Shown: in pieces, positions 2-22,395 of the stretch
Layout of the letters: each line of letters starts with the position of its first letter
How positions within the stretch are numbered: position 1 is the stretch's first letter
Origin: Sodaliphilus sp.
GTDB lineage: Bacteria > Bacillota > Clostridia > Oscillospirales > Ruminococcaceae
Assembly: GCA_963649995.1 (NCBI GenBank)
Contig: CAVJKI010000001.1
Coordinates: 4,802-36,938 of the forward strand
Direction of reading: 5' to 3'
Length of the DNA stretch: 32,137 bases
The notes under the pieces: model-generated
Told to the model about the DNA's origin: nothing
Databases searched by the model: none
Seen by the model: only the letters and a program-made list of their open reading frames with translations
Program-made: the position numbers and the translations under genes

Positions 2-1363
2 ATGTATGTAGGCGGAAATGTTTATTTCACAAAAGGTGTCGAAGACTGGAAAATGAAAAGCTATGCGGAGCATATCACATTTGTTGACAGCGACGGAAGC
101 AAGCATACTTACAGTGAAATAAACGAAATCAAGAATTGCGGCAGAGTAGTTGAATGTAAATCGGCGATTACTCTGACGCTTGACGAAACAACCACGATCA
201 TCGACCTTAAGGAAAGCATAGATGCCATAAAGGCAGAAAACGGCGGGGGCGGCTACACTTATGTATGGCCCTCGCAGGAAAAGCTTTGCGAAAACATTGA
301 TGACGTTAAGGCAGAGATCAACAGAAAGATAGGTGACCCCAAGTACATCAACTGGGATATTGAGAGCAAGTTCAAGAACGGCGAAACTCTTAAGGAAGCT
401 ACAAACATAGAATATAAATTTGTTGATTACAAGGCTGAACACGTTGTAACGCTTTCAGCAAAGGATAAAACCGAATATGTAATGGGAGATATAAAATTCC
501 CGATAAGCTATGACAACTTCGGAATAATATTTGATACAGACGCAGGCGGCGGAACATATAAGGACATATATGTTTACCTTAAAGCCAACTGTGAGTATTA
601 CGAAGAAAACGGTCAGGAAAAATACCGTGCGGACGATCCGACAAAGTACAACTGCTTTATGTGGAATCCTCCCAAGGGTTCAAGCTATGTCGGCGAGAAG
701 AACAACAACCCGTTCCATGTATTTGTTAAGGGTAAGGGTTCGCTCATAATGGTACTTCCCGATAACGTAAAGTATGTAGCTAATTATCAGAGCTATGTCG
801 GACATATAGCTATTTACGAAAAGATAATCGGAAAGACGGTTACAGCGGCAAACAGCCTTGACGCTATCGGTGCATTCGGCAACATCAAGGGCAAGATAAA
901 CGATATTCTTATCAATGACAAAACCAGCAAGAAGAATGCTTGCTTCACAGACGAGTTTATAAATGAAACAGGCGACAGCGGAACAAAGACATACGCTCAT
1001 AACAATGTGTTCCTTGTAACTATTGATAAGAATGCGTCAATGAACTTCCAGCCTCAGCAGAATATGTTTGCAGGATTTATCTATGCACCGTATATGACAT
1101 TTGAGGCAAGCTCACAGGGCGGCCAGGCAGGTATGCTCGGCGGTATGATAGTTTCCGACTATACTATGAAAGAAACGTCCAACACATATATGTGTACAAT
1201 ACCCTATGATTACTACGACAGATTTGTAACACCCGGCGCAAACGAGGCGCAGAAAGAAGAAGAACGCCTTAAGTACATGGAAAAGATAATGGCGGAATCG
1301 GGCTGTACAACTACAATAGGCTCATCTGTTGCCAAGTCATGGAGAGTTTATGGCTATAATTAA
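2..1363 (+). CDS. C-terminal part of a large T4P-associated protein (minor pilin/adhesin-like, PilX/PilK-type); probably 5'-truncated by the window edge
   Basis: Open frame from the window start. Sequence is Asn/Tyr/Gly-rich and beta-like, with an FAGFIYAP motif and a terminal SWRVYGYN strand. It lies directly upstream of two prepilin genes in the same orientation. Confidence 0.55.
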   Translation: MYVGGNVYFTKGVEDWKMKSYAEHITFVDSDGSKHTYSEINEIKNCGRVVECKSAITLTLDETTTIIDLKESIDAIKAENGGGGYTYVWPSQEKLCENIDDVKAEINRKIGDPKYINWDIESKFKNGETLKEATNIEYKFVDYKAEHVVTLSAKDKTEYVMGDIKFPISYDNFGIIFDTDAGGGTYKDIYVYLKANCEYYEENGQEKYRADDPTKYNCFMWNPPKGSSYVGEKNNNPFHVFVKGKGSLIMVLPDNVKYVANYQSYVGHIAIYEKIIGKTVTAANSLDAIGAFGNIKGKINDILINDKTSKKNACFTDEFINETGDSGTKTYAHNNVFLVTIDKNASMNFQPQQNMFAGFIYAPYMTFEASSQGGQAGMLGGMIVSDYTMKETSNTYMCTIPYDYYDRFVTPGANEAQKEEERLKYMEKIMAESGCTTTIGSSVAKSWRVYGYN

Positions 1364-1380
1364 TGAAAGGAGCGATAGCT

Positions 1381-2232
1381 ATGAAGCAATTAAAACGTTT
1401 GCTTAAGAAAAAGGGCTTTACAATATCCGAAGTTCTGATAGCGATGATGATATTTGCTATTATGTCGGCTATCGTGATGCAGATATTAGCTATAGCGATA
1501 AATCAGCATAACAGAAATGTCAACAGCGAAAAGGACATGGATAAGCAGGTACAGGATATTGTTGAGTATAACAGCAATATGGTAAAACGTGATAATGCGG
1601 ATATTGCTATTAACTTTGTCAGAACAGGAAACAATAAGGTTGCGTCTATTGACATTGCCGGTGCAGAAATTATGAAGAATAACGGTTCGGACGGCAGTGA
1701 CGGCAGACTTGAGCTGAATACCATCAAAGCGAATATCGACAAGGATTCATCGGGTGACGACGACAATAAGGATAACGCAGGTATGGTATCCGAGCATGAC
1801 CATATTTACGGTACAAAGGGCATTACAAGCATAACTGTTACCGAAACAACGGCAGATAAGGACGCTTCTACAAAGACTGTTACTCTGAGCGTTACGATAA
1901 CGGATAATAATAATGTCCTTATGAAGGCAGAGAGCAATTCTCTGAAAATCGTAATTCCCGACAACAATTTTAATACGAAGGTTACTGTAAACGGCAGTAA
2001 TATGAAGTATGAGCCGCTGTCAAGCACTAATTTCAGATTTACGGCGGTAAGCAAGGCAACGTCATATTCTTTCACGATCAAATTTGATTTGACAAATGAC
2101 GATTACGAGAGCGAGTATAAGTCGTTTGCAAAGTACTTCATTGACCCTGAGTACAGCGGAAGCGATGAAACTACATTGCGTTCGGCAACGTTCAAGGATT
2201 CAAAAGACCCCGGCGTTTATAACCAGAGATAA
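1381..2232 (+). CDS. Type IV prepilin-like protein (minor pilin)
   Basis: AAGGAG SD precedes ATG 1381. Class III signal peptide MKQLKRLLKKKG|FTISEVLIAMMIFAIMSAIVMQIL (basic leader, G|F cleavage, E5, hydrophobic helix). Confidence 0.9.
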   Translation: MKQLKRLLKKKGFTISEVLIAMMIFAIMSAIVMQILAIAINQHNRNVNSEKDMDKQVQDIVEYNSNMVKRDNADIAINFVRTGNNKVASIDIAGAEIMKNNGSDGSDGRLELNTIKANIDKDSSGDDDNKDNAGMVSEHDHIYGTKGITSITVTETTADKDASTKTVTLSVTITDNNNVLMKAESNSLKIVIPDNNFNTKVTVNGSNMKYEPLSSTNFRFTAVSKATSYSFTIKFDLTNDDYESEYKSFAKYFIDPEYSGSDETTLRSATFKDSKDPGVYNQR

Positions 2233-2243
2233 CGGGAGGGCTT

Positions 2244-2957
2244 ATGAAGTTAACAAGATTACTTAAAAAGAAAGCCTTCACGCTGGTTGAGCTGATAGTT
2301 GCCATGGCAATTATGATGATACTTATCGTTGCGGCTATGTCGATGTTCAATCCCGTTAACGGCATAATCAAAACCATTGACGAAGATGTGGTGACAAATG
2401 CCATAACCGACAGCATGACGACATATATTCATTCCAAGATTAACACCTGCTCAACGTACAATATTGATATTTATGACAATACATCGCTTACGGCAGGTGA
2501 ATCGGTTGACGGAAGTGCGGCAAAGAGATGTAAGGCAATTCTGGGGTCAATAAAAAATCCCGTTGCCGAATCATCTTACTGCATGGTGCTTCGCAGAGAG
2601 AGCGGCACCTTCAAGCTTTACGATCTGGGTAAGATTACGAGTGTGGCTCAGTTTGTAGCGAGAATTAATGATCTTGAGAGCTACGCGCTTTTCAATGACG
2701 AGTATTACAATGATGTTGATTTCCGTTTTACATTTGAAACGACATCAGGCTGGTGTAAAATAGGTATTACATCGCTTGACAGGCAGACGGGAGAAGTCGA
2801 GGTTGAAACACGAACAGATATGTTCAAGCTTGTAAACCTCACATCTACACCCGAAAGCAATCCGATCCTCAAAAATTATGAATCAATCGGAACAGATAAG
2901 AACATCGTGATTTTCTATAACATTATAGATTACACGAAGTACACACCTACAGCATAA
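2244..2957 (+). CDS. Type IV prepilin-like protein (minor pilin)
   Basis: GGAGG SD. Class III signal peptide MKLTRLLKKKA|FTLVELIVAMAIMMILIVAAMSMF with Ala at -1. Confidence 0.9.
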   Translation: MKLTRLLKKKAFTLVELIVAMAIMMILIVAAMSMFNPVNGIIKTIDEDVVTNAITDSMTTYIHSKINTCSTYNIDIYDNTSLTAGESVDGSAAKRCKAILGSIKNPVAESSYCMVLRRESGTFKLYDLGKITSVAQFVARINDLESYALFNDEYYNDVDFRFTFETTSGWCKIGITSLDRQTGEVEVETRTDMFKLVNLTSTPESNPILKNYESIGTDKNIVIFYNIIDYTKYTPTA

Positions 2958-2958
2958 T

Positions 2959-2986
2959 AAAAATCCCCCGCCATATCGGCGGGGGA
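2959..2986. terminator. Intrinsic terminator between the convergent pilin operon and pilD
   Basis: TCCCCCGCC-ATATC-GGCGGGGGA hairpin at 2964-2986. The A5 run at 2959-2963 gives a U-tract on the minus strand. Confidence 0.8.
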
Positions 2987-3003
2987 AATATAAACGCTGA
3001 TTA

Positions 3004-4050
3004 TTACAGCATCGAAAGATAAGCCTTGATAATTGTTTCGCCGAGCAGCATTCCTACTGCAAGTCCGACGCTCAGCGCAGGACCGAAAGCGATACGGCGG
3101 CGGAGCTTTATTTTTGTTATCTTACTGTTTTCAACGGTTGCACGGAATACATATTCCCTACTGTCGGGAAGCTCGCCCATTACTTCATTCAGCTCGTTGC
3201 TGAGTGACTGTGTTGCGGCTTTCAGCTCATCGCCCGAAAGCTTCCACGCTTTTTCTTCAAAAAGCTCAGGGTCGATTTTGCATTTGCCGTGCTCAAACTC
3301 ACCAACAATGACATCTTTGGAATTATCGACTGTTTTGCCGTCACACCATTGTGAGAGCTTTTCGCTTATGACAACGGAACGCTCCTTGGTAAACTTTGAC
3401 GTAGTGCAAAGTACGACAAGTCCGTATATCGCACCGACGATCACGCCGATAACTGCTGACGGAACTATCTTCCAGCCGAGCAGGAATCCTGACGCCGCCA
3501 TGAGCTGGACGTCGCCGCCGCCCATACCGCCGAACAAGGCGAGTATAGCAAACGGCACTGCGATTACTGCCGCACCGACAAAATGTTCCCACCACGGCAT
3601 ATTGGGTTCGGTGAAGAATGTTGCGATACCGAGTACTGCAATGGATATGGTACACCAGTAGGGTATTTCCATGTGGTCGATGTCGATACAGCTCAGAACT
3701 ATGAGCAACGAGAAAAAGACTATTGCAACCACCATCGGCAGGCTTGCGGAGAATCTTATGTAGGCAAGCAGGAACATAAGCCCGGTCAGAGCCTCAACTA
3801 TAGTGTAGCGCACCGAGATCGGCGCTTTACAATTACGGCATTTGCCGCCTAATATGATCCAGCTGAATATCGGCACAAGATCATACGGCTTTATGCGTTC
3901 GCCGCATGAAAAGCAGTGTGACGGACCGTTCACGATCGACATACGCAGAGGAGTGCGGTATATGACCACATTCAGGAAACTGCCGATGATCGAGCCGAAA
4001 ATAAATACAAGTACGCAAATAATGGTATCATACCAAAGTATACCTGTCAT
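3004..4050 (-). CDS. pilD: Prepilin peptidase / N-methyltransferase (peptidase A24) with C-terminal insertion
   Basis: Motifs GSFLNVVIYR, SHCFSCG and GKCRNCK (Zn cysteines), DIDHMEIP and GMGGGD (catalytic aspartates), and terminal IAFGPAL. Start reassigned to ATG at 4050 (GGAAAGGA SD), because the ORF-track extension to 4230 lies in a repeat element. Confidence 0.92.
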   Translation of the reverse strand: MTGILWYDTIICVLVFIFGSIIGSFLNVVIYRTPLRMSIVNGPSHCFSCGERIKPYDLVPIFSWIILGGKCRNCKAPISVRYTIVEALTGLMFLLAYIRFSASLPMVVAIVFFSLLIVLSCIDIDHMEIPYWCTISIAVLGIATFFTEPNMPWWEHFVGAAVIAVPFAILALFGGMGGGDVQLMAASGFLLGWKIVPSAVIGVIVGAIYGLVVLCTTSKFTKERSVVISEKLSQWCDGKTVDNSKDVIVGEFEHGKCKIDPELFEEKAWKLSGDELKAATQSLSNELNEVMGELPDSREYVFRATVENSKITKIKLRRRIAFGPALSVGLAVGMLLGETIIKAYLSML

Positions 4051-4094
4051 ATATATAACCATCCTTTCCTTTTTGGAACGCTGTAAAAACGGTA

Positions 4095-4314
4095 CAGATT
4101 TTAACAAATGGGGTTTGGGGCAACGCCCCAAGTAGGGTCGCAGGGGCGATAGCCCCGCATTATTCCCCTTTCCCGGGGAAAGGGGGCGTTCGGCAATGAT
4201 GCCGAAATAAGGACACGCAAAGCTTTGCACGATGCAAAGCCAACAGAGTGTCCTAAAGGGGTTAGGGATAATAAATCCGCTCTGCGATATAAAATTAGCT
4301 TTTGTTGCAATCTG
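4095..4314. mobile_element. MITE-like non-autonomous element, copy 1 (220 bp, hairpin array)
   Basis: Terminal inverted repeats (TIRs) CAGATTTTAACAAA (4095-4108) and TTTGTTGCAATCTG (4301-4314) match 12/14. Flanking near-direct repeats are AACGCTGTAAAAACGGTA (4077-4094) and AACGCTGTAAAACAGCGTA (4315-4333). It is colinear with 7773-8130. Confidence 0.75.
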
Positions 4315-4338
4315 AACGCTGTAAAACAGCGTATGGAT

Positions 4339-4367
4339 ATTTTACCACATATCTCCGCTTTTTTCAA
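4339..4367 (-). promoter_or_regulatory. Sigma-A-type promoter for pilD
   Basis: On the minus strand: TTGAAA (4367-4362), 17-bp spacer, TAAAAT (4344-4339), with extended TGn. Confidence 0.65.
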
Positions 4368-4411
4368 GTATAAGCGGACAGCACATCACTGATAACAGGG
4401 GGAACAGCTCA

Positions 4412-6103
4412 ATGAAGAACATACCGATAGGACAGATCCTTGTAGAGAACGGATTCCTGAAAGAGGATCAGCTGAACGAGGCGCTCGAAAAACAGCGTAC
4501 CGAGCCGGGCAAAAAGCTCGGTGACGTATTGCTTGAGCTTGGCTACGTTTCGGAAACACAGCTTGCTCAGGCGCTGTCGATACGTCTTAAAGTACCGTTT
4601 GTTGATCTTACAACTACAAAGATTGACATAGAGGCGGTTAAGAAGATCCCGGAGGCAATAGCAAAGAAGAATTGCTGTGTAGCATTCCAGATGACCGATT
4701 CACGTCTTACAGTTGCAACAGACGATCCTATCAACTTCTATATATTCGAGGAACTCAAGGTTATCTCCGGCATGGAGATACACGCGATGATTGCTACCCG
4801 TACCGCTATTAACGAAACCATCAACAAGGCGTACTCACAGCAGACGGTTAGTAACGTTATGGATAACCTCAACAAGGAGTACAACAGCGCAACGGATTCC
4901 GTTATCCAGGACGACCCCGAATCTGGCGAGCGTGTTGATAATGCGCCTATAGTTAAGCTGGTTAATACAATAGTTGAAACCTCGTTCAGAATGAACGCAT
5001 CGGATATTCATATAGAGCCTTTCAAGGACAGGACAAGAATCCGACTCAGAGTCGATGGCGAGCTTATCGAACAGATGAAGGTAAAGCCTGCCGCTCATAA
5101 CTCCCTTATAACACGTATCAAAATCCTCGGCGGTATGAACATCGCCGAAAAGAGAATCCCTCTTGACGGCCGTTTCGGTATGACTATCGACGGTGTTAAC
5201 CTTGACGTCCGTGTATCTACGATTCCTACCGTTTACGGCGAAAAGTGCGTTATCCGTCTGCTTTCAACGGCAGATGAAAAGACAAGAAAGATTACCGACC
5301 TCGGTATGACGCTCTACAACTATGAAATGTTCAAGCAGATCATTCGTTGCCCCCACGGCGTTATGCTGGTTACGGGGCCTACAGGTTCGGGTAAATCTAC
5401 AACGCTGTATGCGACACTCGGTGAGCTTTCAAAGCCTAACGTTAATATCGTTACTGTTGAAGACCCTTGCGAAAAGAAGATAGACGGTGTAAACCAGGTG
5501 CAGATAAACGCAAAAGCAGGACTTACCTTTGCGGCGGCTCTGCGTTCTATCCTCCGTCAGGACCCTGATATAGTAATGGTCGGTGAGATTCGTGACGGCG
5601 AAACTGCGGATATTGCTATCCGTGCCGCTATCACAGGTCACTTGGTGCTTTCAACTCTGCATACAAACGATGCCGCAGGTACGATCCTCCGTCTTGTTGA
5701 TATGGGTGTTGCACCTTACATGGTTGCGTCCTCACTTGTCGGAGTCATCGCTCAGCGACTTGTAAAGCTCCTTTGCCCTGAGTGCAAGGAAAAGGTTACT
5801 CTGACTGACCCCGCCGATTTACGACTTGTCGGCAAGACAGAACCCGTTGAAGTATGCAAGGCGCATTACGGCGGTTGCCGTGCCTGCCATAGCACAGGCT
5901 ACAAGGGCAGAACTGCTATTCACGAGATCATAGTAAGCTCAAACGACATCAAGGAGCTTATCTCAAGCGGTGCTACAGCCGAGCAGATAGGTGCGCAGGC
6001 TGAAAAGAACGGCACAAAGCTTCTGCGTAGCAACGTTACCGATATGGTGCTTGCAGGAACTACAACGCTTGACGAACTGGTAAAAGCCACCTACTCCGTT
6101 TAA
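4412..6103 (+). CDS. pilB: Type IV pilus assembly ATPase PilB/GspE with N-terminal MshEN domain
   Basis: Motifs ASDIHIEP, Walker A GPTGSGKSTT, TVEDPCE, LRQDPDIVMVGEIRD, STLHTN and tetracysteine CPEC...CRAC. The N-terminus has tandem xLGxxLxxxGxxxxxQLxxAL repeats. Confidence 0.95.
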   Translation: MKNIPIGQILVENGFLKEDQLNEALEKQRTEPGKKLGDVLLELGYVSETQLAQALSIRLKVPFVDLTTTKIDIEAVKKIPEAIAKKNCCVAFQMTDSRLTVATDDPINFYIFEELKVISGMEIHAMIATRTAINETINKAYSQQTVSNVMDNLNKEYNSATDSVIQDDPESGERVDNAPIVKLVNTIVETSFRMNASDIHIEPFKDRTRIRLRVDGELIEQMKVKPAAHNSLITRIKILGGMNIAEKRIPLDGRFGMTIDGVNLDVRVSTIPTVYGEKCVIRLLSTADEKTRKITDLGMTLYNYEMFKQIIRCPHGVMLVTGPTGSGKSTTLYATLGELSKPNVNIVTVEDPCEKKIDGVNQVQINAKAGLTFAAALRSILRQDPDIVMVGEIRDGETADIAIRAAITGHLVLSTLHTNDAAGTILRLVDMGVAPYMVASSLVGVIAQRLVKLLCPECKEKVTLTDPADLRLVGKTEPVEVCKAHYGGCRACHSTGYKGRTAIHEIIVSSNDIKELISSGATAEQIGAQAEKNGTKLLRSNVTDMVLAGTTTLDELVKATYSV

Positions 6104-6151
6104 TGCGGATTCGGTGTTTGCAATATATGTTTTTAAAAGGAGAAAACAAAG

Positions 6152-7213
6152 GTGGATATTAACAAAATACTTGACGAGGCAAGAAGGCTCGGCTGCTCGG
6201 ACTTACATTTTACTGCGGGACTTCCTCCCGTTGTACGTCTGCACGGCAGTATCAAAAAGCTCAGCGGCTATCCCGACTGTACAGAGCCTATCATAGTCAA
6301 TATCATAAATCAGATAACCTCTATGAAGCACAAGGCTTCTATCCAGAAGGGTCTTGACACCGACTTCTCGTATGTATCCGCATCAGGACACAGACACAGA
6401 GTAAACGTGTACAGACAAAGGGGCTATCACGCAATAGCCATGCGACTTCTGCGTAATGATATTCCTACATTGCAGGATCTTATGCTCCCCGGACTTATGG
6501 GTGAATTTGCACTCCGTCCGAGAGGACTTGTTCTTGTAACAGGACCTACAGGTTCAGGTAAGTCAACTACTCTTGCGGCTATGATCGACCATATCAACCG
6601 TAACAAGAACTGCCATATCATCACAGTCGAAGACCCTATCGAGTATCTTCACACACACAAGCAGTCAATGGTAAACCAGCGTGAGATCGGCGCCGATGTA
6701 GACAGCTTCGCAGGCTCACTGCGTGCCGCACTCCGTGAAGACCCCGATGTTATCCTCGTCGGAGAAATGCGTGACTTTGAAACTATCAACGCCGCAGTAA
6801 CCGCCGCAGAAACAGGTCACTTGGTGCTTTCGACACTGCATACGACAGGTGCGGCTGAAACCATCGACCGTATCATAGACGTATATCCGCCTCACTCACA
6901 GGGACAGATCAGAGCGCAGCTCGCTAACTCCCTTGTAGCTGTTATCTCACAGACGCTCGTTCCCACAGCGGACGGCAAGGGACGTATAGCCGCCCTTGAG
7001 CTTATGAGCTGCACAGACGCTATCAGCTCACTTATCCGTGAAGGTAAGATATTCCAGATACCGAACTCCATTCAGACCTCAAAGGCTCTCGGTATGTTCT
7101 CGCTCGACCAGGATCTTGCAAGACTTGTCCGTACAGGCAAAATTACGGAGGAAGTTGCAAGAAGCCGTTGCCAGAATCCCGATGACCTCAAGAGATATAT
7201 CGGAGCATATTGA
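6152..7213 (+). CDS. pilT: Type IV pilus retraction ATPase PilT
   Basis: Motifs CSDLH, GPTGSGKSTT, VEDPIEY, ALREDPDVILVGEMRD, STLHT and AIRNLIRE-like AISSLIRE. AGGAG SD and GTG start. Confidence 0.95.
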   Translation: MDINKILDEARRLGCSDLHFTAGLPPVVRLHGSIKKLSGYPDCTEPIIVNIINQITSMKHKASIQKGLDTDFSYVSASGHRHRVNVYRQRGYHAIAMRLLRNDIPTLQDLMLPGLMGEFALRPRGLVLVTGPTGSGKSTTLAAMIDHINRNKNCHIITVEDPIEYLHTHKQSMVNQREIGADVDSFAGSLRAALREDPDVILVGEMRDFETINAAVTAAETGHLVLSTLHTTGAAETIDRIIDVYPPHSQGQIRAQLANSLVAVISQTLVPTADGKGRIAALELMSCTDAISSLIREGKIFQIPNSIQTSKALGMFSLDQDLARLVRTGKITEEVARSRCQNPDDLKRYIGAY

Positions 7214-7244
7214 TCATCAGCAAAATGCAACAGATATGCAGTAT

Positions 7245-7274
7245 AATGCCGCCGAAATCCACGGCGGCATTTTT
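7245..7274 (+). terminator. Intrinsic terminator after pilT
   Basis: AATGCCGCCG-AAATCCA-CGGCGGCATT followed by TTT. Confidence 0.75.
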
Positions 7275-7298
7275 ATGTAAAAAAGAAAGGATTTTTAT

Positions 7299-7754
7299 AT
7301 GAAATTTGTTATCCAGCGTGTGACCCATGCAAGCGTAACCGTTGACGGCGAGCCCGTCGGAAAGATCGGCAAGGGCTTTATGGTGCTGATTGGCATAGCA
7401 CAGACCGATACCAGAGAAACCGCCGACAAGCTTATCCGCAAGATGACGGGGCTTCGTATCTTTGACGATGAGAACGGCAAGACAAACCTTGCTCCTGCCG
7501 ATGTCGGCGGAAGCCTGCTGCTCATATCCCAGTTCACTCTCTATGCCGATTGCCGCAAGGGCTACCGCCCCTCTTTCGTGAACGCAGGCACCCCCGACAT
7601 GGCAAACGAGCTGTACGAATACATCGTTGAACAGTGCCGTAACTGCGATAATATAGCCGATGTACAGACAGGCGTATTCGGCGCTGACATGAAGGTTGAG
7701 CTTCTGAACGACGGTCCCTTCACGGTTATTCTCGACAGCAATGAGCTTATGTGA
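7299..7754 (+). CDS. dtd: D-aminoacyl-tRNA deacylase
   Basis: Motifs [29 protein letters not shown]. Confidence 0.97.
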
Positions 7755-7772
7755 AATACTGTGTAACGGCTT

Positions 7773-8130
7773 CAGTTTGTCGAAATGGGGTTGAGGGGCG
7801 TAGCCCCCATACAGGTCGTCAGCCATTTGTGTCACTGCATCGTGCAGTGACTTTGTGCGGCTGACTGCAAGCGTCCTTGCTTGGACTGGGCGGTAGCCCC
7901 AGCAAAATAGCCCCAGCACGGATGCTGGGCGTGTATGCCACAAGGCTTTGCAGGACGCAAAGCCAACCAAGCATACACAACCCTTCACCGAGGGAAAGGG
8001 GTTTGGGGTTTCGGCAAGGATGCCGATATAGAACGCCCAAAGGCTTTGCACGACGCAAAGCCCACAAAGCGTTCTTAAAGGGATAGAGAATCTGCTCTAT
8101 TTTTATAAAACAGACTTTTTCTACAGGTTG
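7773..8130. mobile_element. MITE-like non-autonomous element, copy 2 (358 bp, with two extra hairpin modules)
   Basis: Degenerate TIRs CAGTTTGTCGAAA (7773-7785) and TTTCTACAGGTTG (8118-8130) match 9/13. Flanks 7756-7772 and 8131-8147 are 12/17 identical. It shares AAATGGGGTT, two GGG(G)C-N3-4-GCCCC hairpins, CCCTT...AAGGG and the terminal module with copy 1. Confidence 0.7.
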
Positions 8131-14424: not shown

Positions 14425-15654
14425 ATGATCTCTGTGGAGAATGTATTTTTTGCACGTCAGCCCATACTTGATGTGAATAACAATACTTATGGCTACGAGC
14501 TGCTTTACAGAAATCAGCCCGGAGTAAACGCATATACGGGAAACAACGGTGATGTAAGCACAGCAGATGTAATCAACAACGCATTTTTTGTCGATAATAT
14601 AACAAGCGTTCTAGGCGGTAAAAAAGCATTCGTCAATTTTACCGGCAACCTCATAAAAAGAGGCGTTCCCAAGATGATTTCAAGCGATATTCTTGTAGTT
14701 GAGCTGCTTGAAAGCGTTATGGCGGACGCAGAGATAGTAAGACGCTGTATAGAGCTTAAGAAGCTGGGCTATCTGCTGGCGCTTGACGACTATGAATACG
14801 GTGAAAATACGAAAGCGTTGTTTGAGCTTGCCGATATAGTAAAGCTTGACTTCCACACCTCAAGGGAGGCAGTGGAACGCACAGCGGAAAAGTGTATCAC
14901 ATATAATAAGATAATGCTTGCCGAAAAGGTGGAAACACAGCTTGAGGTCGAATATGCAAAGAGGCTCGGCTGTACGTATATGCAGGGCTATTTCTTTGCA
15001 AAGCCGTTGCTGATGACGCACAGGACGAACACGCCCATGGCGAAGACGTTCCTTCATATACTGGGTCTTGTGTATTCACCCGAGCCCGATTATGAGGAAA
15101 TAGCGGCGGTAATCTCAACGGACGTTGTTCTGACAATACGGCTTCTGAGGCTTATAAACGTAATGTACGGAAGTACGGGGAACAAGATTTCCACTATTCA
15201 TCAGGCACTTGTCCTGCTTGGCTTTGAAAAGCTGAAGGAATGGATATACCTTGTCGGACTGCAAAGGCTTCATAAGGATACTCCCGACGAGCTGATAAGG
15301 CTTGCTCTGTTCAGGGCGAAGTTCTGCGAAAGCGTTTCCAAGGTAATGCCGGGACAGTACATACACAGGAAAGAAATGTACCTTATGGGTCTTATGTCGG
15401 TAGTGGCGGGTACGACCGATGAGCGTGATATAGGAAACGTCATGAAGGAGCTGCCTGTAACAGATGAGATAAAGAACGGTCTGCTCGGTGCAGACGGACT
15501 TTTCGGAGATGTGTTCAGACTGGTCGTTGACTACGAACACGCAAACTGGGATAAGGTAGAGGAGTTTGTAAAGAAGTACAATGTCGATGCACAACAGCTT
15601 GCAAACGAATATGTACAGTGCGTCAGATTCATGCAACAGTTTTATATCAGTTAA
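14425..15654 (+). CDS. EAL-HDOD c-di-GMP phosphodiesterase (YuxH/PdeH-like)
   Basis: Motifs ARQPI, GYELLYR, AFVNF, LALDDY, LAEKVET, QGYFFAKP. The C-terminal region is HDOD-like (LRLIN...ISTIHQALVLLG). Confidence 0.9.
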   Translation: MISVENVFFARQPILDVNNNTYGYELLYRNQPGVNAYTGNNGDVSTADVINNAFFVDNITSVLGGKKAFVNFTGNLIKRGVPKMISSDILVVELLESVMADAEIVRRCIELKKLGYLLALDDYEYGENTKALFELADIVKLDFHTSREAVERTAEKCITYNKIMLAEKVETQLEVEYAKRLGCTYMQGYFFAKPLLMTHRTNTPMAKTFLHILGLVYSPEPDYEEIAAVISTDVVLTIRLLRLINVMYGSTGNKISTIHQALVLLGFEKLKEWIYLVGLQRLHKDTPDELIRLALFRAKFCESVSKVMPGQYIHRKEMYLMGLMSVVAGTTDERDIGNVMKELPVTDEIKNGLLGADGLFGDVFRLVVDYEHANWDKVEEFVKKYNVDAQQLANEYVQCVRFMQQFYIS

Positions 15655-15730
15655 GATTTGCTAAGCCGCTGTCTGCGACTTTTGCTTTTTAAAACATATT
15701 AATTCATTTGCGCAAAGACGGAGGGATAAC

Positions 15731-17098
15731 ATGGCTGGAAATAAATGTGCCGCAGCATCAGAGCCTTCAAGCAGAGATCTGAGTGAACTGAAAAATCGTT
15801 TCAAGCCGGGGTACGACTGGGAAACGATATACTCCACCATGCTGGATCATCTTATGTGCGGAGTAGCAATATATGAGCTTTGCCCCGACAAAGTAAGGTC
15901 ATTGTATTTCAACGAAAGATACTATGAAGTGGTGGGCTATACAAAGGAGCAGTATGAGCAGTATGCTGACAGCGTGACATCATCGCTGTACGATGAGTCG
16001 GCTCAGCTTATATTTGAAAAGGGCTTTCATTCGGCTCAGACGGGGGAAACGTTCTATGCAGAATGTAAAGGAAAGAGATTTGACGGCAGTGATATATGGG
16101 TGCTTATAAAGGCGAGAACGGTTGACTTTATAGTAAGCGAGCATCCCATATTCCTTGCGATAGTCCAGGATATGACAAGCAAAAAGCTTGCCGAATATGA
16201 AAATGCGGTGAATCTTGAGCGCTACAGAATACTGGAGGCGACCTCAAATGCAGTTACATTTGAATATGATGTTCCGGGAGATGTTATGACATTCTTCTAC
16301 GGAAACGGCAGTAAAGGCAACGCCGCTTCCTCCGACCGCTCGATAAGTAATTACACAGAGGTATCCAAGCGCACGCAGATAGTTTATCCCGAGGACGCTC
16401 CTAAGTTTTATAAGGCGCTTAAAATTGCCTGTAAGGAGCCTGTGAGCTGTCTTATACTCGATTACAGGTCGACTATTATAGACCAGAACAGCTATCGCTG
16501 GGTAAAGACCTGTTATTCAAGCATTGCCGACGCAAGCGGACGGGTCGTCAAGGTTTTGGGCAGAACTCAGGACATAGACGATGAAAAGCGGGAGCATCAG
16601 AGAATGGCACAGCTTGTCGAGCTTGACAGCACAACGGGACTGCTCAATAAGCTGGCAATAACCAATCACATACAGCGGCTGATCGACGAAAAGACGCAGG
16701 CAAAAAGCTTTTTTGTAATGCTTGATATTGATGATTTTAAGCTGTTCAATGACACATACGGTCACAGCTTCGGCGACGAGGTGCTGGCGGCGGTCGGTAA
16801 ATCGCTGTCAAAGAGAATCCCCGATTCGGTTATAGGCAGATTCGGCGGCGACGAATTTATCGTTTTTGCAAGGGCGGTAAACGAATCGGTGATAGTGGAT
16901 AATTTTGAGGACTTCCTTAAAACGGTCAGAAATACCGAAATAAAGGGAAAACTGTACGATATAAAGTGCAGTATCGGCATAGCATGGAGCGACAGCAACG
17001 ATATTTGCTATTCAAAGTACTTTGACGAGGCTGATGAACAGCTTTATAAGGCTAAAAAGTCAGGAAAATGCCGTATATGTCACAAGAAAATCGTCTGA
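15731..17098 (+). CDS. PAS-domain diguanylate cyclase (GGDEF)
   Basis: Motifs DSTTGLLN, LDIDDFKLFNDTYGHSFGD, GRFGGDEF, ADEQLYKAK. Two PAS-like segments lie N-terminally and no TM helix is evident. Confidence 0.92.
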   Translation: MAGNKCAAASEPSSRDLSELKNRFKPGYDWETIYSTMLDHLMCGVAIYELCPDKVRSLYFNERYYEVVGYTKEQYEQYADSVTSSLYDESAQLIFEKGFHSAQTGETFYAECKGKRFDGSDIWVLIKARTVDFIVSEHPIFLAIVQDMTSKKLAEYENAVNLERYRILEATSNAVTFEYDVPGDVMTFFYGNGSKGNAASSDRSISNYTEVSKRTQIVYPEDAPKFYKALKIACKEPVSCLILDYRSTIIDQNSYRWVKTCYSSIADASGRVVKVLGRTQDIDDEKREHQRMAQLVELDSTTGLLNKLAITNHIQRLIDEKTQAKSFFVMLDIDDFKLFNDTYGHSFGDEVLAAVGKSLSKRIPDSVIGRFGGDEFIVFARAVNESVIVDNFEDFLKTVRNTEIKGKLYDIKCSIGIAWSDSNDICYSKYFDEADEQLYKAKKSGKCRICHKKIV

Positions 17099-19596: not shown

Positions 19597-22395
19597 ATGG
19601 ATAAAAAATATCGTGTAAACGAGTTGGCAAAGGACCTTAATGTTTCAACGGGCGACATTACAGATGTCGTGCAGGAATATTTCGGGGTGCAGAAGAAATC
19701 TCAGGCTTCTCTTACGGAAGACGAGCTTTCTGTTGTGCTGGAAAAATATTCTCAGAAAAATCAGGTAAGTAATTTTAATTCATACTTTGCGTCTGCAAAC
19801 AAGCCTAAGGAAGAAAAGAAAGAGGAAAAGGCAGAAAGCAAGCCCGCAAAGAAAACGGAAAAGGCCGAAAAGAAAGCCGAGCCTAAAAAGAAAACTGAAA
19901 AGGCAGAGGTCAAGGCTGAAAGCGAAAGCGCAAAGCCCGCAGAGGCAAAATCAGAGCCGAAAACGGCGGCAAAGACTGAGGCTAAGGCAGATGTAAAATC
20001 AGAAGCCAAGGCAGATGTCAAGGGTGAAAAGCCTGCCGACAGAAAGCCCGCAAATAACCGCAGCGAAAGAGGCGGAGAACGTAACGGTAACCGTAACGAC
20101 AGACCGCAGGGTGACAGAAAGCCTTACGGTGACAGAAACGGCGATCGTAACGGCAATCGTAACGACAGACAGTTCGGCGACAGAAAGCCCTACAGCGACA
20201 GAAACAACGACCGTGGCGACAGACAGTACGGCGACCGTAACAATGACAGAAGAAACGATAACAGAAACGGCTATCAGGGCAGGAACGACCGCAGGGATCA
20301 AAAGCCCGTACAGCAGACAGCTCCGACACAGCCCGTTATCGACCTTGCAAACATAAAGACAAACGCACCTCCGACAAAGCACGTCAAGGGCGAAGCCGTA
20401 CAGAGAGGCGAGCAGGTCACAAAGCACGTTGATACAAGAGGAAGCTATGTAAACCTTGACAAGTACAACGAAAAGTATGAAACGATCGCTTCAACCGAGG
20501 GCGGCAACAGACGTCAGAATGACGCTTATACAAAGAAGCAGAAGATAAACCAGAAATCCCAGAAGGGCAAACAGCAGTTCAGCAAGAAGAAGGAAACCGA
20601 GGCTCAGAAGCTGAAGCGCCTTGAGCTTGAAAAGGCAAGAAAGAAACAGCTTGAGATACAGGTCCCCGACGAGATAGTTGTATCCGAGCTTGCATCACGT
20701 CTTAAGGTTACTGCCGCTGACGTTATAAAGAAGCTGTTCGGACTTGGTGTAATGGTTACTATAAACCAGTCGGTTGACTATGATACGGCTTGTATCGTAG
20801 CGGAAGAATTCGGCGCAAAGGTTACCAAGGAAGTTGTAGTTTCCATCGAGGAGCGTCTGTTTGAAGAAGTTGAGGATACAGATGAAAACTTACAGCCCCG
20901 TTCGCCTGTCGTTGTCGTTATGGGTCACGTTGACCACGGTAAGACATCTCTGCTTGATAAGATCAGAAATGCAAACGTTACCGCAGGCGAGGCAGGCGGT
21001 ATCACACAGCATATAGGCGCTTACAGAGTAAAGGCAGGCGGCAGGGATATTACATTCCTTGATACGCCCGGACATGAAGCTTTCACAGCTATGCGTGCAA
21101 GAGGTGCGCTCGCTACGGATATAGCCATACTCGTTGTTGCGGCTGACGACGGTATCATGCCGCAGACGGTTGAAGCAATTAACCACGCCAAGGCGGCTAA
21201 CCTGTCAATCATCGTTGCGATAAACAAGATGGATAAGCCTGCGGCAAATCCCGACAAGGTAAAGCAGGAGCTTACTGAACACGGTCTTGTATGCGAGGAA
21301 TGGGGCGGCGATGTTATCTGCGTTCCCGTATCCGCAAAGACGGGCGAGGGTATAGATGAGCTGCTCGAAATGGTAAACCTTACGGCAGATGTGCTTGAGC
21401 TTAAGGCTAACCCCGACAGACTTGCAAAGGGCGTTGTCATTGAGGCAAGAATCGATAAGGGCAGAGGTCCTATCGCTACTGTTCTTGTACAGGCAGGTAC
21501 GCTCCACACAGGCGATACCATTATCGCAGGTACTGCTGTCGGACGTGTGCGTGTAATGCGTGACGACAAGGGAAGAACAGTAAAGGAAGCAGGTCCTTCT
21601 GTTCCCGTTGAGATCATGGGTCTTGCGGAAGTTCCCAGCGCAGGCGATGACTTTGCGGCTGTAGAAGATGAAAAGCTTGCAAGAGAGCTTGTTGAAAAGA
21701 GAAAGTTTGACGCTAAGGAAGAACAGTTCAAGCTCTATAAGAAGGTCAGCCTTGATAATCTGTTCTCACAGATCGAAGAAGGCTCAATGAAGAAGCTCCC
21801 CATCATCATAAAGGCTGACGTACAGGGCTCTGTAGAGGCGGTTTCACAGTCGCTGTCAAAGCTTTCAAACGAAGAAGTAAGAGTTGAGGTAATACATGGC
21901 GCTGTCGGTGCAGTAACAGAAAGCGACGTTATGCTTGCAAAGGCATCGGGTGCTATCATAGTAGGCTTTAACGTAAGACCTCACCCCGCCGCTGCCGAGA
22001 ATGCAAAGCGTGACGGCGTAGATATAAGACTTTACAGAGTTATCTATGACGCTATCGAGGAAATGCAGACAGCTATGAAGGGTATGCTTGCTCCCAAGTA
22101 CAGAGAGGTCGATACGGGACGTGTTGAGGTAAGACAGGTAATGAAGCTGTCAAGCGTCGGCATAGTAGCAGGCTCTTATGTTCTTGACGGCAAGGTACAG
22201 AGAAACGGTGAGGTAAGAGTTGTACGTGACGGTATAATCGTTGCCGTTGACAAGATAGCAGGCTTACGTCGCTTCAAGGACGATGTAAAGGAAGTAGCCG
22301 CAGGCTACGAGTGCGGTATCACGCTTGAAAAGTTCACCGACATAAAGGAAGGCGACATATTTGAAGCGTTTGTTACCGAGGAGTACAGAGATTAA
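19597..22395 (+). CDS. infB: Translation initiation factor IF-2
   Basis: Motifs [38 protein letters not shown]. Low-complexity K/E/A and DRN-rich N-terminal linker. Confidence 0.98.

Follow-up and report, generated by a model that had tools for sequence, protein, structure and literature searches.

A probable miniature insertion element of two hairpins, genus-restricted and defined by its fold, with an extra-base footprint

The stretch of DNA analyzed here (the window; 32,137 nucleotides, part of contig C1 of a genome that is 88% complete) contains two copies of one MITE (a miniature transposable element with inverted repeats), which differ in length by 138 bp. A unit of about 68 nt, which forms two hairpins and which we call the module, is present once in the first copy and three times in the second. 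The question raised by this locus is whether the module is a unit that inserts independently and is recognized by its shape, as a preliminary description of the sequence had proposed. We conclude that the module is real and restricted to one genus, a miniature insertion element that is defined by its fold and leaves a distinctive footprint. Probably, it is a gene-less, non-autonomous mobile element of two hairpins, which an enzyme would recognize by its fold and insert as DNA by two staggered strand events.

The four modules were confirmed at the positions, and with the stems and loops, that had been described. Module A (4189..4256, + strand; 68 nt) has the outer stem AGGACAC and the loops AATGAT and ACGAT, and occupies slot D of MITE copy 1 (4095..4314, + strand; 220 bp), in which slots A', B and C are empty. 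The other three modules are in MITE copy 2 (7773..8130, + strand; 358 bp), which follows dtd. Module B (7816..7883, − strand; 68 nt) lies between the first two hairpins of the MITE, module C (7912..7980, + strand; 69 nt) at the foot of its third hairpin and module D (8010..8077, + strand; 68 nt) in a G-rich tract close to its right end. These coordinates include a 2-nt 3' tail. Each module folds as a small hairpin plus a long one, which an internal loop interrupts; the fold stabilities correspond to z values from −4.6 to −7.2, and none of 200 shuffled sequences was equally stable. When a covariance model seeded on six copies was applied to the 32-kb window, its matches were exactly modules A to D. 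The outer stems, all of which had been called fully paired, are indeed paired overall, but that of module B contains one G-T pair. Modules B and C explain 137 of the 138 bp by which the two host copies differ, and their positions are empty in the first copy, as the preliminary description had noted.

Further copies proved to be numerous: there are 24 module matches in the source genome and 79-81 in the complete genome of a relative (G016), and 61 of 108 genomes of the genus carry matches. Across the family, the module is 67-70 nt long. Tip hairpins number 54 in the genome as compared with 1-3 in three shuffled genomes. The idea that the module is conserved by shape rather than by sequence is borne out by strong covariation. 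In an alignment of 19 copies, 94.9% of the cells are paired (69.7% after shuffling; 0/500 shuffles) and two-sided changes are found at 16 of 21 pairs; in a genus-wide alignment of 53 copies, 96.6% of the cells are paired (62.8% after shuffling) and two-sided changes are found at 18 of 21 pairs. Both alignments were fitted to the structure and their copies are related, so these pair counts lean high; in an alignment not fitted to the structure, two-sided change is still seen at 8 of 12 pairs. Two chimeras, one deleted copy, two partial copies and one antisense match were dropped before the second model was built. Template switching can, however, yield compensatory changes without selection, and the covariation is therefore weakened as evidence of function.

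Sequence conservation is confined to the tips, GC-A(N)GGAY-GC and GC-AN(G)GAY-GC. Thus the stems are free in sequence, whereas the tips (GC-A..GAY-GC) and the helix lengths are fixed. GGA is present in 51 of 53 small loops, mostly as AAGGAT or AGGAT, and in 36 of 52 long loops. The pairing is almost entirely Watson-Crick (1017 of 1050 cells; G-T 12, A-C 10). On a single strand only, the internal loops are rich in A and C (337 A, 172 C, 38 G and 29 T).

The module is found at unrelated sites, and 12 sites were scored: MITE slots A', B, C and D; an A-type site; the loop of a GTAG repetitive extragenic palindrome (REP); the T-loop of a tRNA-Leu fragment; three nested forms (N1, N2 and N3), in which a module lies in the inner stem of another module; a second hairpin repeat outside the MITE; and a gene. 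The same REP flanks the RAYT gene of the source genome. One module body (T/D type) is present at four unrelated hosts. In genome G031, a 69-nt module interrupts a protein-coding gene; the homologous copies, six in five genomes, all lack the insertion. This gene target folds weakly (−5.3 kcal/mol over 70 nt). Outside the MITE, an empty allele exists for the REP, tRNA, nested and gene sites alike. Together with the further copies, the covariation and the lack of an Rfam match, they support the proposal of an independently inserting, shape-recognized unit, and the REP, tRNA, gene and nested sites show that it is not confined to fixed positions in a larger element. Two observations on these targets may be added. 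A homologue of the interrupted gene in genome G013 (L232) has a different, 27-nt hairpin-like insertion further 3', and in G000 (C14; L001:800-1830) a RAYT gene is preceded by tandem GTAG REP units, which elsewhere are module targets.

Comparison of the insertion sites defines the module ends. The module begins (5' end) where the small hairpin has its foot and stops (3' end) 1-3 nt beyond that of the long hairpin. Only 0-1 bases are repeated at the junctions. The module itself has neither terminal inverted repeats nor a target duplication, its ends vary in sequence, and the flanks of the 12 scored sites have no common motif. At 8 of the 12 sites one base is ambiguous, the first base being common to module and target (p = 0.03, computed with the REP site wrongly delimited). 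Because it holds at these eight sites only, a universal T^T or shared-base rule was rejected.

The insertions leave a footprint. At 9 of the 12 scored sites there is one extra base, nearly always A, on the 3' side of the module, at position n+1 from the 3' junction, where n is the length of the small-hairpin arm (5, 6 or 7 nt). In the window, the extra A of module B is at 7810 on the module (−) strand, the 6th base past the junction (arm, 5 nt), and that of module C is at 7987 on the + strand, the 7th base past the junction (arm, 6 nt). For B, C, A', tRNA, N1, N2 and N3 (n = 5, 6, 6, 6, 5, 5 and 7, respectively), the flanks, once rejoined, have no match among empty sites unless the A at n+1 is taken out, after which they match 2-22 of them. 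The gene site in G031 fits the rule by comparison with its homologues, and at the REP sites five of nine filled copies have the extra base (A in three, G in two). The base accompanies filling: in slot C it is found in 15 of 18 filled copies but in none of 57 empty ones, and in slot A' in 10 of 11 filled copies but in none of 58 empty ones. In slot B, 13 filled copies have the extra A and none of the 31 listed empty ones does; these counts rest on listed motifs only, and loose-anchor totals, which include chance matches, are excluded. Because a 69-nt insert in the G031 gene would keep the reading frame and the extra A breaks it, the extra A is unlikely to have been selected.

The distribution of the module is patchy within the genus. 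All ten relatives with at least 87% NusA identity carry it, and among those with 79-83% identity five have it and six do not. Searches that scored only 32-80 candidates per genome under strict filters gave no match in 149 further genera of the same family, in 24 other families of the order or in 150 genomes of the phylum. Viral contigs gave no match to one pattern and 31 matches to another, none of which (0/31) scored on the covariance model. A pattern scan of GTDB, which possibly did not include the close genomes, gave one match, in a Bacteroides metagenome-assembled genome, and this match has no outer stem. By crude calls of open reading frames (ORFs), 26 modules are sense and 23 antisense to genes, and 37 of 81 are placed on the leading strand.

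From these features we propose how the module may move. An enzyme acting in trans would recognize the fold. The folded strand would be released, probably as a closed dumbbell, and would be linked at its small-hairpin foot to the target, which likely replaces the 5' arm of that hairpin. A second break n bases further on would be closed with the addition of a single A, in register with the A that is invariant in the loop. Each site would be hit once; filled alleles would afterwards spread when the host MITE or REP transposes and through gene conversion among the copies, and template switching would keep the stems perfect. If the module is such a mobile element, a DNA-level recombinase or transposase is slightly favored, an RNA-templated route has a modest chance and any other route a small one. 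We lean to the DNA route because of the near-perfect Watson-Crick pairing, the similar numbers of G-T and A-C pairs and the lack of strand bias, although hitch-hiking in MITEs could hide such a bias.

Several points weigh against a mobile element inserted in this way. No moving enzyme was found in searches for RAYT, Y1_Tnp and DUF559 over 36 genomes and for RVT_1 over five, and the only multicopy transposase or ORF in the complete genome G016 belongs to an IS200 whose end hairpins are unrelated. No circle, excision or transcript was seen in the material available, which consisted of contigs of relatives; no sequencing run contained half of the words looked for, and the one RNA run had a share of 0.05. 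Three of the 12 sites (D, A-type and the second hairpin repeat) have no extra base, and four of the nine REP copies lack it. Slot A' obeys the distance rule in only one of its two alleles, the 3-C allele, and N1 and N2, which have a common arm and flank, may be one event; therefore, about eight independent sites support the n+1 rule. Registers and the lengths of arms and tails were chosen by hand prior to scripting. The likeness between arm and target is weak (p = 0.04, a value affected by the same delimitation of the REP site). Among the 24 empty MITEs of G016, including the orthologue of MITE copy 2, none has the extra bases that precise excision would leave. Finally, no freshly identical pair was seen at unrelated sites and the small-hairpin stems differ by site, and hence the activity may be old.

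RAYT, TnpA and DUF559 had been suggested as model enzymes, but none of them tracks the module over the 36 genomes, whose counts include kin that are not independent. RAYT is present in 1 of 17 positive and 6 of 19 negative genomes, Y1_Tnp in 8 of 17 and 5 of 19, and strong DUF559 hits in 4 of 17 and 4 of 19; Y1_Tnp is absent from the module-rich genomes G017, G018 and G026. The RAYT and Y1_Tnp counts argue against a PATE (palindrome-associated transposable element) or an element like a REPIN that would depend on a HUH transposase of the same genome (IS200 TnpA or RAYT) for its movement, an explanation that we consider decidedly improbable. It would account for the absence of terminal inverted repeats and of a real target duplication and for the near-terminal hairpins, and the source genome does have a RAYT. 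However, the hairpins have no GTAG or GTGG foot, there is no conserved terminal or target tetranucleotide, and the REPs of RAYT itself serve as module targets. In G016, no lone tip hairpin is present beside a gene, as an autonomous partner would give. That genome also encodes a lone reverse-transcriptase-like ORF of 500 aa (2216712-2218215) with no module nearby. RNA-templated insertion, by which a transcribed module would be joined to one strand and reverse-transcribed from a nick n bases downstream with addition of the extra base, would be another chemistry for the same element and is unlikely. Group II introns offer a parallel, since their retrohoming involves a second-strand cut that lies some bases inside the 3' flank, as well as added bases. 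The one-strand A/C bias of the internal loops and the tips, which are CsrA-type RNA loops, also fit this route. In contrast, RVT_1 was found in only two of five module-rich genomes, G-U pairs are rare and without strand bias, and the modules have no orientation bias.

The same tips could mean that the fold is kept mainly as an RNA useful to the host, namely a double CsrA-binding site (a sponge or mRNA-stability element) that MITEs carry passively. CsrA binding has been predicted for the TwoAYGGAY motif (PMC4333381; preprint 10.64898/2026.09.22.753630). GGA is frequent in both loops of the module, and csrA is present in the source genome and in 16 of 17 module-positive genomes. However, csrA is also present in 14 of 19 module-negative genomes, so its presence is compatible with binding but not discriminating. 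Half of the copies are antisense, the long loops of the source genome often lack GGA, and the precise ends, nesting, gene disruption and footprint are left unexplained; we regard this explanation as improbable. Copying of the unit between repeats with no dedicated enzyme, through hairpin-stalled replication, template switching and gene conversion, is highly improbable. Palindrome-corrected copies, chimeras, tandem arrays and linked flank variants show that such processes act, but they do not account for ends fixed within 1-2 nt at unrelated sites, for insertion into a gene without homology or for an extra A that tracks the arm length.

As for its history, each slot is best read, from the compared sequences, as having been filled once and then reshuffled among MITE copies. 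The contrast between filled and empty slots of the two window elements would reflect old insertions that the host MITE has carried and reshuffled, and not fresh jumps. Precise excision as the origin of the empty slots was rejected, as it is not seen in the 24 empty MITEs of G016; because those copies lack extra bases, slot differences between orthologous MITEs are best attributed to gene conversion between copies. Judging from their sequences, chimeric copies (C108 and C10), palindrome-corrected copies (C39 of G000 and slot D of G062) and tandem copies show recombination and template switching at work. Linked flank variants are also found among the module copies, as are tandem module arrays at short repeats. 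In C39 of G000 and in L285 (G062), the internal loop has been rewritten to a perfect palindrome, a signature of template switching. At L278 and L282 (G017) and L056 (G028), head-to-tail arrays with host flank lie at short repeats; several G017 hosts have a T-rich 5' flank and an A-rich 3' flank. At G016:2499698-2500288, a tRNA-derived repeat has a tandem row of at least four different modules, all at one junction. A rolling-circle origin of the tandem arrays was rejected, because the junctions have the host right flank and not a complete small-hairpin arm.

The host MITE is a conventional element by comparison. Its copies have terminal inverted repeats, IS1182-like at the ends of copy 1, and are flanked by terminator-like hairpins of 24-32 bp duplicated at the target. 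At MITE copy 1, the left (4077..4094) and right (4315..4332) copies of a target duplication of about 18 bp were found, a terminator-like hairpin that is slightly decayed, and the orthologous site in G016 is empty, with a single copy. The site of MITE copy 2 has no MITE in five genomes and a module-less MITE of 153 bp in G016; in an eighth relative (G107) it is too diverged to score. The three modules of MITE copy 2 amount to 205 nt, which is 358 minus 153, and its orthologue in G062 has four modules. More generally, MITE lengths rise in steps of about 69 nt: among 45 pattern-found copies in G016, 24 have no module, and eight, seven, five and one have one, two, three and five modules, respectively. 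Fragments of an IS1182 transposase in G018 and G026 have the same ends as the MITE. The transposase was seen only as fragments, in four of six genomes, and a full-length autonomous partner was not found (best score, 94 bits; cut-off, 270). A comparison of the MITE with plasmids gave no match. A derivative of IS1182 in G026, 420 bp long and internally deleted, has the MITE ends and lies between terminator-like hairpins (L128:1417-1837).

The surroundings of the MITE copies may be described briefly; the gene content of the window suggests a gut bacterium of the Clostridia type. Window positions 2-7213 contain a type IV pilus locus with two N-methyl pilin-type ORFs, a prepilin peptidase and PilB- and PilT-like ATPases; MITE copy 1 separates the peptidase gene from the divergently oriented pilB gene and could influence the promoters of both. 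Adjoining EAL/HDOD and PAS-GGDEF genes of cyclic di-GMP signaling (14425-17098) are located upstream of rimP-nusA. The window also includes dtd and the rimP-nusA-infB region, in which the tandem repeats in the N-terminal coding region of infB (19815-20240) are an ordinary low-complexity IF2 linker.

Because very small hairpin repeats (SDRs, SMRs and TwoAYGGAY-like repeats) leave so few traces, the question of how they spread is still open. In the module family, filled alleles can be compared with empty ones, the ends are fixed and nested insertions order events; since about half of the genomes of the genus are positive, the family is also suited to gene profiling. The footprint is a constraint on every mechanism that may be proposed. 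Should the extra A be enzymatic, it would provide a search image with which related elements could be sought in other taxa, and insertion assays could use it as a direct readout. We also entertain, though with doubt, that the module represents a new class of minimal mobile DNA with an insertion chemistry of its own: in a dumbbell defined by its fold, the small hairpin would determine where joining takes place as well as where, at a distance of n bases, a second cut is made, with one additional A left behind; hairpin-loop inserts of this kind would then be the origin of TwoAYGGAY-type "orphan RNAs". If this were true, the enzyme would insert sequence-flexible cargo without terminal inverted repeats or a target consensus.

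We compared the module with known systems. Stem-loop targeting is described for IS1272 of the IS1182 family (PMC5678879). The host MITE resembles this family in its terminal inverted repeats, hairpin targets and long duplication, whereas the module has neither such repeats nor a hairpin-long target duplication. For an IS110/IS1111 bridge recombinase, conserved donor ends would be expected; the module ends are not conserved in sequence. By description, the module resembles the small dispersed repeats (SDRs) of cyanobacteria (Elhai et al. 2008, Genome Res 18:1484; PMC4390886) in its very small size, hairpin formation, precise insertion and lack of a known enzyme. SDRs, however, are about 21-27 nt long, and one targets HIP1; the module, at 67-70 nt, consists of two hairpins, shows no consensus among its targets and leaves the extra-A footprint. 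PATEs are defined by near-terminal hairpins and the absence of terminal inverted repeats and target duplication, and small mobile repeats of the SMR-A type of Haloquadratum land preferentially in other mobile elements, their mobilization being enigmatic (PMC3119063). Like the PATEs and SMR-A of Haloquadratum, the module is transposase-free and makes no target duplication. However, the ends of PATEs resemble IS605-type ends and have a conserved terminal oligonucleotide, and SMRs have terminal inverted repeats and more than 95% identity; the module has none of these. In 33 IS200/IS605 loci there were three module matches, and in the two that were inspected the matches were not at the element ends. 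Unlike in REP/REPIN-RAYT systems (as defined in PMC6006769), GTAG or GTGG is not found at the foot of the module hairpins, and there is no module at the RAYT locus of the source genome.

The preliminary description had not recognized the module as a described family. In Rfam, no match was obtained in the window, the source genome or nine loci at the gathering threshold or at useful E-values, but a look-alike exists in the core of the TwoAYGGAY motif (RF01731; Weinberg 2010, PMC2864571), although its model does not score. Among five relatives the best score on this model was 24.9 bits (cut-off, 43), from one G017 module aligned to model positions 45-113, and no match above 43 bits was found in six module-rich genomes. 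The literature searched gave no description of the module family or its footprint, although variants from Bacillota may be described in the supplementary material to the preprint and to Weinberg 2010. The module and TwoAYGGAY have in common two neighboring hairpins, ANGGAY-type loops, many copies and a very variable copy number. In contrast to TwoAYGGAY, the hairpins of the module are unequal, its core is a separable insert with empty alleles, and it has no basal stem of its own; a basal stem is present only in host loops (REP and tRNA fragment) and is derived from the host. The preprint (Li et al., 10.64898/2026.09.22.753630) suggests a mobile-element-like expansion of TwoAYGGAY. The module family indicates that a two-hairpin fold of the AYGGAY type can be a parasite of other repeats and not a regulatory RNA gene.

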